Position numbers and translations under genes: made by a program. Under the pieces are notes generated by a model. It had not been told where the DNA came from and made no database searches. It worked only from the letters and a program-made list of their open reading frames with translations. A stretch of DNA of 40,663 bases from a virus (lineage: Duplodnaviria; Heunggongvirae; Uroviricota; Caudoviricetes). The stretch lies in IMG/VR virus record IMGVR_UViG_2874951433_000008. One strand, 5' to 3'. This document shows positions 2,331-5,916 of the stretch, piece by piece. Every line of letters starts with the position of its first letter. The stretch's first letter is position 1.

Positions 2331-2449
2331 GGTGCATTCCTCACGATGTGCGAATAAAAAGCCCGGGCATTGCGCCAGAGACATGTGAGGTAGCCTGAGT
2401 TTAACGGACACTCCTTCCTGAAATAGAATGGCATCAGAAGGAGCAAATA

Positions 2450-2752
2450 ATGAGCAGAAAAACCCAACGTTACTCTAAAGAGTTCAAAGCCGAAGCTGTC
2501 AGAACGGTTCTTGAAAATCAACTTTCGATCAGTGAAGGCGCTTCCCGATTATCCCTTCCTGAAGGCACTTTAGGACAATGGGTTACCGCCGCCAGAAAAG
2601 GGCTCGGTACTCCTGGTTCCCGCAGGGTGGCTGAACTGGAATCTGAAATTCTGCAACTGCGTAAGGCGTTAAATGAAGCTCGCCTTGAGCGCGATATATT
2701 AAAAAAAGCAACAGCGTATTTTGCACAGGAGTCGCTGAAAAATACGCGTTAA
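2450..2752 (+). CDS. IS600 OrfA (IS3-family HTH/leucine-zipper protein)
   Basis: 100-aa ORF MSRKTQRYSKEFKAEAVR…, identical in all four IS600 copies except one residue. Confidence 0.9.
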   Translation: MSRKTQRYSKEFKAEAVRTVLENQLSISEGASRLSLPEGTLGQWVTAARKGLGTPGSRRVAELESEILQLRKALNEARLERDILKKATAYFAQESLKNTR

Positions 2753-2787
2753 TCGAACAATGGCGACAACAATTTCCCATTGAAGCG

Positions 2788-3606
2788 ATGTGTCAGGTAT
2801 TTGGTGTATCCAGGAGCGGTTATTACAACTGGGTACAGCATGAACCCTCAGACAGAAAACAAAGTGATGAGCGGCTAAAACTGGAGATTAAGGTGGCACA
2901 TATCCGCACTCGCGAAACATATGGAACCCGGCGGCTCCAGACGGAGCTGGCAGAGAATGGCATCATCGTTGGTCGTGACCGACTGGCATGTCTTCGTAAG
3001 GAGCTGAGGCTACGCTGTAAGCAGAAACGCAAGTTCAGAGCGACTACGAACCCGAACCACAATCTGCCAGTTGCGCCAAATCTGCTGAACCAGACGTTCG
3101 CTCCTACAGCACCAAATCAGGTCTGGGTGGCGGACCTGACGTATGTTGCCACACAGGAGGGATGGTTGTACCTCGCTGGCATCAAAGATGTTTATACGTG
3201 CGAAATTGTCGGCTACGCCATGGGAGAGCGCATGACAAAAGAGCTGACAGGTAAAGCCCTGTTTATGGCGCTCAGGAGCCAGCGCCCACCTGCCGGGCTA
3301 ATCCACCACTCTGATCGAGGTTCACAGTACTGCGCATACGATTACCGGGTCATACAGGAGCAGTCTGGTCTGAAAACATCAATGTCGCGTAAAGGTAACT
3401 GTTACGACAACGCTCCGATGGAAAGCTTCTGGGGAACGCTGAAAAATGAGAGCCTGAGCCACTATCGTTTTAATAACCGGGATGAAGCCATCTCAGTAAT
3501 ACGGGAATACATTGAGATTTTCTACAATCGTCAGCGTCGTCACTCTCGTCTGGGGAATATCTCCCCGGCAGCCTTCAGGGAAAAATATCATCAGATGGCT
3601 GCTTAA
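2788..3606 (+). CDS. IS600 OrfB transposase (DDE catalytic domain; normally made as an OrfAB frameshift fusion)
   Basis: 272-aa ORF with the IS3-family motifs NQVWVADLTY…GWLYLA…HSDRGSQY…. Confidence 0.9.
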   Translation: MCQVFGVSRSGYYNWVQHEPSDRKQSDERLKLEIKVAHIRTRETYGTRRLQTELAENGIIVGRDRLACLRKELRLRCKQKRKFRATTNPNHNLPVAPNLLNQTFAPTAPNQVWVADLTYVATQEGWLYLAGIKDVYTCEIVGYAMGERMTKELTGKALFMALRSQRPPAGLIHHSDRGSQYCAYDYRVIQEQSGLKTSMSRKGNCYDNAPMESFWGTLKNESLSHYRFNNRDEAISVIREYIEIFYNRQRRHSRLGNISPAAFREKYHQMAA

Positions 3607-3649
3607 AAAAAGAACAAATGGTAGTGTCCGCTATTGCCAGTACACCTCA

Positions 3650-3821
3650 TATTGGCTACGTAATTAAAACAGAAAATAAAGAAACCCCATTCACTGTAGT
3701 TGATATCGACGGTCTATCAGGAAACTTTAAAACTCTTGTTGAAGGTGCCACAAAAATGTGCCTAGTTTACATCGGAAATAATCTGCCCGCAGAAAAAAAG
3801 CCGAATTTCTGGCAAATCTGA
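3650..3821 (+). pseudogene. 3' portion of an 81-aa ORF split by IS600; the 5' portion lies at 5840..5916 on the other strand
   Basis: Joining the reverse complement of 5840..5916 to 3650..3821 and removing one copy of the TAT duplication gives an uninterrupted ORF MNTNYEATVATTDNIVHEVYLEGKHIGYVIKTENKETPFTVVDIDGLSGNFKTLVEGATKMCLVYIGNNLPAEKKPNFWQI. Confidence 0.6.
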
Positions 3822-3848
3822 TTGCAATGAAATTAAAAGGTGAAATCT

Positions 3849-3879
3849 GAAAAAAAGAAAGCCTGCACAGTGTGCAGGC
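3849..3879 (-). terminator. Rho-independent terminator-like hairpin oriented for the minus strand (gcctgcac/gtgcaggc stem followed on the minus strand by a T-run)
   Basis: Perfect 8-bp stem with 3-nt loop; the A-run at 3851..3860 on the plus strand is a U-tract on the minus strand. Confidence 0.4.
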
Positions 3880-3949
3880 CTGAGTGAAGAACCTGGGACA
3901 TTTATTCATCACTCGCAGTAATTTTAATCTGAGTTGAGGTTAAAAAACA

Positions 3950-4594
3950 ATGAGCACAAAACCACTCTTCCTGTTACGGAAAGCGAAAAAATCATCCGGT
4001 GAACCTGACGTCGTCCTGTGGGCAAGCGACGATTTTGAATCGACCAGCACCACTCTGGACTATCTGCTCGTTAAGTCAGGTAAAAAACTGAGCAACTATT
4101 TTAAAGCTGTTGCCACAAATTTTCCTGTCGTTAATGACCTTCCCCCTGAAGGTGAGATCGATTTTACCTGGAGTGAACGCTATCAACTCAGCAAAGACTC
4201 CATGACATGGGAACTAAAACCGGGAGCAGCGCCAGACGACGTTCACCACCAGGATAATGCTCAAGAAACCAAAGAACTGGCGGGAGGCCAGGAAGAAAAC
4301 GCGCAGGCAGACGCCCACGAGGATTGCCAGGATTGCGAAGTCTCTGTAGCCACTTTGCGGTTCACACAGCGTCTTCTGCACATTTTTACGTATGCTGCCG
4401 GGGATCGGAAATACCTGCATCATGCCACCCGTGAACAACGCAAACACATTACTGCTCTTGAGATGGATCAGGAAAACAGCTATGTCCAGAATCTGCTGTT
4501 GGCCATACGCGGCATGGCAGAACCGACAACTCTGGATAATGCCGCCCTGCTCCGCCTGACTGATGCAATTAAGGCTGAGGTGTACTGGCAATAG
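3950..4594 (+). CDS. Hypothetical 214-aa acidic protein; its last codons and stop come from the IS600 terminus, so the native C-terminus is probably missing
   Basis: Protein-like ORF with GAGG upstream of the ATG in an AT-rich segment; the final residues …AEVYWQ* are encoded by the IS600 end TGAGGTGTACTGGCAATAG. Confidence 0.5.
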
Positions 4595-4618
4595 CGGACA
4601 CTACCATTTGTTCTTTTT

Positions 4619-5437
4619 TTAAGCAGCTATCTGATGATATTTTTCCCTGAAGGCTGCCGGGGAGATATTCCCCAGACGAGAGTGACGACGCTGACGATTG
4701 TAGAAAATCTCAATGTATTCCCGTATTACTGAGATGGCTTCATCCCGGTTATTAAAACGATAGTGGCTCAGGCTCTCATTTTTCAGCGTTCCCCAGAAGC
4801 TTTCCATCGGAGCGTTGTCGTAACAGTTACCTTTACGCGACATTGATGTTTTCAGACCAGACTGCTCCTGTATGACCCGGTAATCGTATGCGCAGTACTG
4901 TGAACCTCGATCAGAGTGGTGGATTAGCCCGGCAGGTGGGCGCTGGCTCCTGAGCGCCATAAACAGGGCTTTACCTGTCAGCTCTTTTGTCATGCGCTCT
5001 CCCATGGCGTAGCCGACAATTTCACACGTATAAACATCTTTGATGCCAGCGAGGTACAACCATCCCTCCTGTGTGGCAACATACGTCAGGTCCGCCACCC
5101 AGACCTGATTTGGTGCTGTAGGAGCGAACGTCTGGTTCAGCAGATTTGGCGCAACTGGCAGATTGTGGTTCGGGTTCGTAGTCGCTCTGAACTTGCGTTT
5201 CTGCTTACAGCGTAGCCTCAGCTCCTTACGAAGACGTGCCAGTCGGTCACGACCAACGATGATGCCATTCTCTGCCAGCTCCGTCTGGAGCCGCCGGGTT
5301 CCATATGTTTCGCGAGTGCGGATATGTGCCACCTTAATCTCCAGTTTTAGCCGCTCATCACTTTGTTTTCTGTCTGAGGGTTCATGCTGTACCCAGTTGT
5401 AATAACCGCTCCTGGATACACCAAATACCTGACACAT
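4619..5437 (-). CDS. IS600 OrfB transposase
   Basis: 272-aa ORF near-identical to 2788..3606. Confidence 0.9.
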   Translation of the reverse strand: MCQVFGVSRSGYYNWVQHEPSDRKQSDERLKLEIKVAHIRTRETYGTRRLQTELAENGIIVGRDRLARLRKELRLRCKQKRKFRATTNPNHNLPVAPNLLNQTFAPTAPNQVWVADLTYVATQEGWLYLAGIKDVYTCEIVGYAMGERMTKELTGKALFMALRSQRPPAGLIHHSDRGSQYCAYDYRVIQEQSGLKTSMSRKGNCYDNAPMESFWGTLKNESLSHYRFNNRDEAISVIREYIEIFYNRQRRHSRLGNISPAAFREKYHQIAA

Positions 5438-5472
5438 CGCTTCAATGGGAAATTGTTGTCGCCATTGTTCGA

Positions 5473-5775
5473 TTAACGCGTATTTTTCAGCGACTCCTGT
5501 GCAAAATACGCTGTTGCTTTTTTTAATATATCGCGCTCAAGGCGAGCTTCATTTAACGCCTTACGCAGTTGCAGAATTTCAGATTCCAGTTCAGCCACCC
5601 TGCGGGAACCAGGAGTACCGAGCCCTTTTCTGGCGGCGGTAACCCATTGTCCTAAAGTGCCTTCAGGAAGGGATAATCGGGAAGCGCCTTCACTGATCGA
5701 AAGTTGATTTTCAAGAACCGTTCTGACAGCTTCGGCTTTGAACTCTTTAGAGTAACGTTGGGTTTTTCTGCTCAT
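5473..5775 (-). CDS. IS600 OrfA
   Basis: 100-aa ORF identical to 2450..2752. Confidence 0.9.
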   Translation of the reverse strand: MSRKTQRYSKEFKAEAVRTVLENQLSISEGASRLSLPEGTLGQWVTAARKGLGTPGSRRVAELESEILQLRKALNEARLERDILKKATAYFAQESLKNTR

Positions 5776-5839
5776 TATTTGCTCCTTCTGATGCCATTCT
5801 ATTTCAGGAAGGAGTGTCCGTTAAACTCAGGCTACCTCA

Positions 5840-5916
5840 ATATGCTTTCCTTCCAGGTAAACCTCGTGAACAATGTTATCAGTAGTTGCAACAGTGGCTT
5901 CATAATTGGTGTTCAT
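5840..5916 (-). pseudogene. 5' portion (25 codons) of the IS600-split 81-aa ORF, preceded by a strong RBS (AAGGAGAAAAAC-ATG)
   Basis: ATG at 5916 on the minus strand reads MNTNYEATVATTDNIVHEVYLEGKH and then hits the IS600 end at 5839. Confidence 0.6.

Follow-up and report, generated by a model that had tools for sequence, protein, structure and literature searches.

An IS600 target-site duplication divided between two inverted copies in a Shigella flexneri-type prophage remnant

The 40,663 nucleotide viral record IMGVR_UViG_2874951433_000008 from IMG/VR (the window, by which we mean the whole stretch of DNA analysed) is a decayed Rac-type prophage of Shigella flexneri type, heavily ridden with insertion sequences (IS) and carrying ipaH. 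Near its left end two copies of IS600 lie in opposite orientations around a 926 bp segment. The TAT target duplication of one insertion, into the gene racC, is divided between both elements. The best explanation, to which we assign a probability of about 0.8, is that an IS600 inserted in racC and that homologous crossover between inverted IS600 copies followed, leaving a scar that is now fixed. The significance is small: this is a cleanly reconstructable case of IS elements scrambling and inactivating Shigella prophages.

The IS600 pair and its flanks

The region comprises the following features.

2386..3649, plus strand: IS600 copy 1, 1264 bp; left flank ATG (start of a DUF4376 gene), right flank the racC TAT
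2450-2752 and 2788-3606, plus strand: orfA (HTH_Tnp_1) and orfB (rve/rve_3) of copy 1, assigned with Pfam
3650..3652, plus strand: TAT, one copy of the 3 bp target duplication, adjoining the right end of copy 1
3653..3821, plus strand: 3′ part of racC, codons 27-81 and stop, lacking its own start codon or promoter
3950..4575, plus strand: recE′, codons 1-208 of an exonuclease VIII gene of the RecE family; the frame runs into the IS, to 4594
4576..5839, minus strand: IS600 copy 2, 1264 bp; right end adjoining recE′, left end adjoining the 5′ part of racC
5840..5842, minus strand: TAT (ATA on the plus strand), the second copy of the duplication, adjoining the left end of copy 2
5843..5928, minus strand: 5′ part of racC, with ATG at 5916-5914 and codons 1-25; TAT at 5842-5840 gives most of codon 26
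5928-5923, minus strand: AAGGAG ribosome-binding site, 6 nt upstream of the racC ATG

A repeat finder returned inverted arms at 2386-3649 and 4576-5839, each of 1264 nt and separated by a spacer of 926 nt, as the sole inverted pair in the first 12 kb. Base-by-base comparison of copy 1 with copy 2 reveals three mismatches, at IS positions 604, 816 and 1212, and an identity of 99.8%. The repeat finder and the direct comparison agree with a preliminary description of this DNA, in which copy 1 on the plus strand and copy 2 on the minus strand bracket 926 bp.

Several features identify the elements as IS600. Each copy carries a helix-turn-helix orfA and an rve-type orfB, the latter matching the NCBIfam IS3 family transposase model NF033516 with E = 3e-98. 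A slippery run, AAAAAAG, occupies 2702-2708 in copy 1, and the layout is that of the IS3 family, with two open reading frames (ORFs) joined by a -1 frameshift at an A-rich slippery site. RefSeq labels elements of about 99% identity 'IS3-like element IS600 family transposase, programmed frameshift', and the copies are near-identical (98.5-99.2%) to IS600-annotated elements in many Escherichia coli genomes. The length of 1264 bp matches the approximately 1.26 kb of IS600, which has imperfect terminal inverted repeats of the form 5′-TG…CA-3′; here the ends read TGAGGTAGCCTG… and …CAGTACACCTCA, and 20 of the first 29 positions agree after reverse-complementing the right end. The 3 bp target-site duplication of IS600 is evident in clean cases at copy 3 of the window (CTG/CTG), in the racC of E. 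coli FDAARGOS_943 (TTG/TTG) and in a recE homologue of E. coli VL40 (ATG/ATG).

When both elements are read in IS orientation, copy 1 lies between ...GACATG and TATTGG... and copy 2 between ...AGCATAT and GCCTTA.... Reverse-complementing 5840-5842 gives the TAT of 3650-3652. The two flanks left over, ATG (2383-2385) and GCC (4573-4575, reverse-complemented), are unmatched. The flanks thus bear out the earlier statement that copy 1 at its right end and copy 2 at its left end share TAT, the other two junctions being different. In the reference alignment the same three TAT bases are covered by both the 3648-4575 and 5838-7589 pieces. We caution that a 3 bp match is by itself weak evidence, expected at 1/64 per flank pair, and that the decisive evidence comes from external genomes.

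The interiors of the orthologous IS600 copies vary by strain across loci L002-L022. Depending on the strain, both copies have a 27 bp deletion, copy 2 alone has it or both lack it, and there are mosaic single-nucleotide polymorphisms at positions 41, 60, 169, 240, 307, 323 and others. The marker 1212A, near the end of the element, stays with the recE′ flank across the same loci. The mosaic interiors suggest either that the many IS600 copies undergo gene conversion without crossover or that repeat polishing introduced noise into the assemblies. Being mosaic, the polymorphism patterns inside both copies revealed neither a crossover location nor toggling across these strains.

racC, recE and the ancestral gene order

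Joining 5916..5840 to 3650..3821 literally gives 82 codons and a stop, with TAT counted twice. With one TAT dropped (5916..5840 and 3653..3821) the product is an 81-codon ORF, MNTNYEATV...NFWQI*. The pre-insertion sequence was rebuilt as the reverse complement of 6289..5840 followed by 3653..4575, a 1373 bp stretch running from ydaE through racC to recE. E. coli FDAARGOS_944 contains it as a single ungapped alignment with 99.6% identity, and alignments that cross the junction and extend over 80% or more of its length were obtained from 275 E. coli genomes. Rac-type phages also contain this ydaE-racC-recE stretch, and its small gene is labelled 'protein RacC' in related phages. Annotations of FDAARGOS_944 and of many E. 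coli genomes give the order Rha-YdaE-racC-RecE, and the rebuilt gene has the place of racC there, between ydaE and recE in a Rac-type early-left operon.

The rebuilt protein matches the RacC-type model NF007306 (PRK09790) with E = 2e-41 over residues and model positions 1-78 of 91, a match that spans the codon-26 junction. It falls short of a full-length RacC, scoring 140 bits against a curated cut-off of 171 bits and having 81 rather than 91 amino acids. Since the halves are contiguous in related genomes and the NF007306 match crosses the junction, both derive from one gene, racC. Their contiguity, in FDAARGOS_944 and the 275 E. coli genomes, excludes the case in which they are nowhere contiguous or come from different genes and upholds the earlier proposal on this point.

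The truncation to 81 residues arises in an A-run at about 3794-3800 (within 3790-3805), which has 7 A where the intact 91-residue racC has 8 A. FDAARGOS_943 and FDAARGOS_944 share the 7-A frameshift in their racC genes, and RefSeq flags the FDAARGOS_944 gene as frameshifted. The racC of the window is a frameshifted pseudogene and, because the two E. coli strains share the lesion, the gene was most likely broken before IS600 arrived. The preliminary description had seen a clean 81-codon ORF with a strong ribosome-binding site; the 81 codons are recovered once one TAT is removed and AAGGAG is present, but the gene is a frameshifted racC and not an intact one.

The recE′ product matches Pfam PF06630 (Exonuc_VIII, E = 1e-67) and aligns with NF007259 at positions 1-199 of 877 only. 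A RecE protein combines an N-terminal Exonuc_VIII region with a C-terminal nuclease part, of which the window encodes only the N-terminal 208 residues. The recE of FDAARGOS_944 reads ...AATTAAGGC and then AGTTTTCTC..., past the point at which IS600 copy 2 cuts the window gene. The 926 bp segment thus holds just two gene fragments, the promoterless 3′ part of racC and recE′ without its nuclease part.

Between ybhA and pgl, FDAARGOS_944 has this prophage in near-intact form, in the order ybhA, int, xis, gam, recE, racC, ydaE, rha, cI, cro, then replication, lysis, head, tail, tail fibre, DUF4376, ipaHb and pgl. The window aligns with it by blastn as follows.

3-2387, plus relative to FDAARGOS_944: ipaH and DUF4376
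3648-4575, plus relative to FDAARGOS_944: 3′ part of racC and recE′
5838-33648, minus relative to FDAARGOS_944 and colinear apart from IS insertions: 5′ part of racC to capsid

By this comparison the 926 bp piece is in the ancestral orientation towards ipaH, and it is instead the 28 kb block from the 5′ part of racC to the capsid gene that is inverted. Two parts of the FDAARGOS_944 prophage are missing from the window, a 14.8 kb tail block and the stretch from the 3′ part of recE through int.

Orientation across assemblies and the history of the locus

Does the segment flip? Loci were gathered by exact matches to the junction proteins (a 214-residue recE′ fusion and a 67-residue IS-racC fusion) together with one exact DNA scan. 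Distinct assemblies obtained in this way numbered 17; most are complete chromosomes or contigs of megabase scale, and the names seen were S. flexneri apart from one labelled E. coli. Orientation was tested using four unique 100 bp anchors, one per flank. In all 17 the four anchors have the order and orientation of the window, and the flipped form occurs in none of them. One assembly with N-filled IS copies (L020) is counted for anchor order only and has no independent weight on orientation, and a scaffold without the outer anchors (L011) was given no weight on orientation. At L005 (CP026799.1) the sequence equals the window at every IS position of both copies and at all four flank anchors. Neither the flipped form nor a simple IS600 insertion at the racC TAT site was found in 5,426 E. 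coli genomes, a search that yielded just the independent insertions of FDAARGOS_943 and VL40.

The suggestion that the segment may be invertible is therefore not sustained: one orientation is seen throughout, with no flipped form and no simple-insertion intermediate. An invertible switch would be expected to have a dedicated recombinase and short specific inverted repeats, and to occur in both orientations among isolates. Here the repeats are complete IS600 copies, the genes between and beside them are limited to IS600 transposase, racC fragments and recE′, and the isolates display a single orientation. The locus is a fixed rearrangement scar and nothing points to a working DNA switch, although the inverted IS600 copies are, in principle, still a substrate for recombination. 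Because the segment carries a promoterless 3′ fragment of racC and a recE′ without the nuclease part, its inversion would have no evident payload. The arrangement could serve as a marker of the S. flexneri lineage.

How might the scar have formed? An IS600 would have inserted at racC codon 26, duplicating TAT, and a second IS600 of opposite orientation would have had the DUF4376 start (ATG) on one side and recE codon 209 (GCC) on the other. Host homologous recombination would then have crossed over within the 1.26 kb copies and inverted the DNA between them, leaving each copy with one racC flank and one foreign flank. The second copy would itself be the product of another IS600-mediated inversion, which brought recE next to the tail-fibre end of the prophage, and ATG and GCC would match nothing locally because of that origin. 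Since the 926 bp piece is in the ancestral orientation and the 28 kb block is inverted, no fewer than two nested inversions would be needed, along with a third IS600. The path that we propose uses two nested inversions, in either order, and three IS600 positions (DUF4376 start, racC and recE), with the product becoming fixed in the S. flexneri lineage. It is the simplest path we constructed and would reproduce all four flanks. The rearranged product is without function: racC carried a frameshift beforehand, and only fragments of it and of recE are left.

In the preliminary description, recombination between inverted IS copies flips the segment. The split TAT fits such recombination, but relative to the ancestor it is the 28 kb block and not the 926 bp that is inverted. 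The flank pattern was also read there as the signature of homologous recombination; it is indeed the pattern expected, but an inversion coupled to transposition leaves the same one.

Several observations weigh against this history. The intermediate is hypothetical, with no genome among the 17 assemblies and 5,426 E. coli genomes carrying either a simple IS600 at the TAT site or the opposite orientation. The model predicts a third IS600 between the tail-fibre gene (…GCACAT) and the 3′ part of recE (GGCAGTTTTC…), with the partner junctions GGTGCCGGATGCACAT to TGAGGTGTAC and CTACCTCA to GGCAGTTTTCTC both on one IS600. An exact-pattern scan of the genome collection for the recE-side 32-mer of this element gave no match, while the control, the recE′/IS600 junction of the window, was found there in two S. 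flexneri-type genomes. The predicted junction also had no match in the metagenome collection, which is uninformative as the control junction lacked matches there too. A search for homologues of the 3′ part of recE returned mainly 646-residue RecE-family genes with at most 97% identity, and neither an S. flexneri 3′ fragment nor any other 3′ fragment close to the version in this prophage; the best match, at 97%, was to full-length genes. Finally, the flanks would fit homologous recombination and transposition-coupled inversion alike. The missing part, with the 3′ end of recE and the third IS600, was probably lost in later rearrangements; otherwise the history would be more complex.

The transposition-coupled alternative deserves attention since its predicted product, ATG[IS]TAT … GGC[IS inverted]ATA, would be identical to what is observed. 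A single IS600, or a tandem dimer whose end-to-end junction is active, at a DUF4376/recE′ joint would attack the TAT site of an intact racC in the same DNA molecule, creating in one step the second inverted IS, the 926 bp inversion and the split TAT, with no prior racC insertion or crossover. The absence of a simple TAT-site insertion from the genomes searched accords with this, as does the difference between the copies at only 3 of 1264 positions, although these mismatches and the strain-to-strain mosaicism are uninformative either way. Elements of the IS3 family move by a copy-out/paste-in route via a circular intermediate, which yields simple insertions, and replicative intramolecular inversion is unusual for them. 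IS600 itself has left simple insertions with duplications at copy 3, in FDAARGOS_943 and in VL40. We regard the one-step route as improbable and prefer insertion in racC followed by crossover.

The remaining alternatives concern what the layout does or whether it is real. Repeats of 1264 bp, 99.8% identical and 926 bp apart, should be a good RecA substrate, and the strain-variable IS interiors, including the 27 bp deletion, suggest ongoing recombination or gene conversion among IS600 copies. An active, reversible flip-flop might on these grounds alter expression, for example of the recE′ and racC fragments or by outward transcription from IS600 beside new neighbours. This is very unlikely given the single orientation of 17 assemblies, a segment limited to the promoterless 3′ fragment of a frameshifted racC and a recE fragment without the catalytic part, and the absence of a dedicated recombinase or short specific inverted repeats. 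Two inverted IS copies around passenger DNA are formally also the layout of a composite transposon inserted as a unit. The probability of this is close to nil: the outer flanks, ATG (2383-2385) and ATA (5840-5842), form no direct repeat, and the passenger and the right outer flank are adjacent in genes of the reference prophage, which marks the passenger as local DNA and not imported. The composite transposon and the site-specific switch were both rejected on flanks and gene content. Short reads are unable to settle the orientation of a 926 bp piece between 1.26 kb repeats, which calls for caution with assemblies at this locus. One assembly has N-filled IS copies and most contigs with the junction proteins are below 2 kb (38 of 48 and 128 of 158 blocks). 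A mis-oriented piece is nevertheless scarcely credible as 17 assemblies from different projects agree, most of them megabase-scale contigs or complete chromosomes. Moreover, the split duplication and split gene would be present in either orientation, and only the pairing of the halves would change.

Related systems and neighbouring genes

IS-mediated inversions are known in S. flexneri from the comparison of strains Sf8401 and Sf301, one of them attributed to IS600, and in one case a nested re-inversion between IS4 copies restores the colinearity of an inner block (PMC1550401). The endpoints of those inversions, like those in the window, lie in inverted copies of one IS and the nested pattern is parallel. 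Those events span more than 5 kb and vary between strains (PMC1550401), whereas the inner event considered here is of 926 bp, lies in a prophage remnant and is fixed in all assemblies examined. The kind of event is thus already known, and the window provides a small, fixed and local example of S. flexneri IS-mediated inversion. No individual description of this 926 bp inversion was found in the literature.

With Hin, Gin, Cin and the fim switch the window shares a segment between inverted repeats for which two orientations are possible in principle. Those systems use short recombinase sites, whereas here the repeats are whole 1.26 kb IS elements with no dedicated invertase. The segment also differs in having no promoter or alternative coding end, and in being observed in one orientation.

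Independent IS600 insertions in this region are present at two further loci.

L023, E. coli FDAARGOS_943, 9164-12557: inverted IS600 copies in racC and recE
L024, E. coli VL40, 9655-10918: a simple IS600 insertion (ATG/ATG) in the recE homologue of a different prophage

The prophage of the window also occurs in FDAARGOS_943, at the same ybhA/pgl site, and the inverted pair there surrounds 867 bp as compared with 926 bp in the window. The insertion sites are independent: relative to those of the window, the one in racC (TTG) lies 30 bp upstream and the one in recE 90 bp upstream. Both TTG duplications and both racC halves are still attached to the racC copy, and because both duplications are retained there has been no crossover in this pair. 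The recE IS600 is joined by a deletion to an integrase fragment. FDAARGOS_943 offers a natural example of the unrecombined type of precursor that the model needs.

An inverted IS600 pair around the same racC-recE fragment has therefore arisen twice, and at least five independent IS600 junction sites fall within approximately 1 kb of racC-recE in three lineages (S. flexneri, FDAARGOS_943 and VL40). By eye, the clustering of five sites looks non-random. It is conceivable, though doubtful, that racC-recE is a recurrent IS600 target in Shigella and enteroinvasive E. coli (EIEC)-type genomes and that the inverted pair still flips rarely within cultures. The recurrent hits could arise because IS600 prefers certain targets, or because selection favours inactivating the recombination module of the prophage. 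If non-random, they would have a modest bearing on the choice of IS targets or on selection against prophage recombination genes.

The surroundings of the IS600 pair in the window are as follows.

1-1587, plus strand: ipaH, with Pfam NEL/LRR matches; with the DUF4376 gene, the pgl-proximal end of the prophage
1767..2385, minus strand: DUF4376 gene (Pfam) of the tail-fibre region, cut at its first codons by the left end of copy 1
5943..33648, minus strand: rest of the prophage (ydaE, rha, cI, cro, replication, lysis, terminase, portal, capsid), from blastn and, for late genes, Pfam

In FDAARGOS_944 the DUF4376 gene is uninterrupted at the corresponding place, where GGTGCCGGATGCA continues upstream of CATGTCTCTGG, into the tail-fibre gene. 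Annotation of the window itself holds a trap, as 3618-3821, 3950-4594 and 5827-5964 are called as small 'genes' and are really pieces of racC or recE fused to IS ends. The ipaH frame has 528 residues from window position 1 and 608 in most related strains; other strains have calls of 528, 388 and 203, 317 or 288 residues, and one has an internal IS1. In several lineages, then, this effector gene is decaying. Across the racC junction, ydaE (5991-6272, minus strand) encodes 93 residues in most relatives and is here broken into a 43-residue N-terminal ORF (6141-6272) and a remainder. The same break is present at L005, L006 and several other loci, and strains differ in breakage.

In FDAARGOS_944 recE has an AAA-ATPase gene as its neighbour, and a search for homologues of this ATPase gave a truncated S. 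flexneri hit, situated in a different ipaH/sit prophage remnant. In S. flexneri CP102230.1 (L025, 3576-10783) a second ipaH/DUF4376 module is found in another prophage remnant next to sitABCD, where an IS2 joins the module to a truncated AAA-ATPase. That remnant is a further prophage of this family, cut down by a deletion associated with IS elements.

The block at 5943..33648 is colinear with FDAARGOS_944 except for IS insertions and ends at a fourth IS600 (33649-34885). Rightward of this element are a Mu-like transposase/repressor remnant, dcuC and pagP (34883-40663), and the left chromosomal flank is the pgl/ybhD side (loci L002-L009). On the K-12 map the pgl/ybhD and dcuC/pagP regions are approximately 145 kb apart, and for this reason the window would span a larger chromosomal rearrangement.

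IS600 copies 3 (17792-19028) and 4 (33649-34885), both on the minus strand, are 1237 bp long because of a 27 bp in-frame deletion in orfB, at IS positions 763-789. Copy 3, flanked by an intact CTG duplication, is a simple insertion. The flanks of copy 4, TAT and ATT, are unmatched and it connects post-capsid prophage DNA to the Mu-like transposase remnant; it therefore marks another rearrangement breakpoint. Other elements in the window include two full IS2-type copies (7590-8920 and 26550-27880), the first of which duplicates 5 bp of the reference sequence, and one partial copy (22377-22658). An IS66-family element occupies approximately 19645-22656, with a 533-residue transposase at 20744-22345, and there is a further insertion of about 1.25 kb at 22877-24125.

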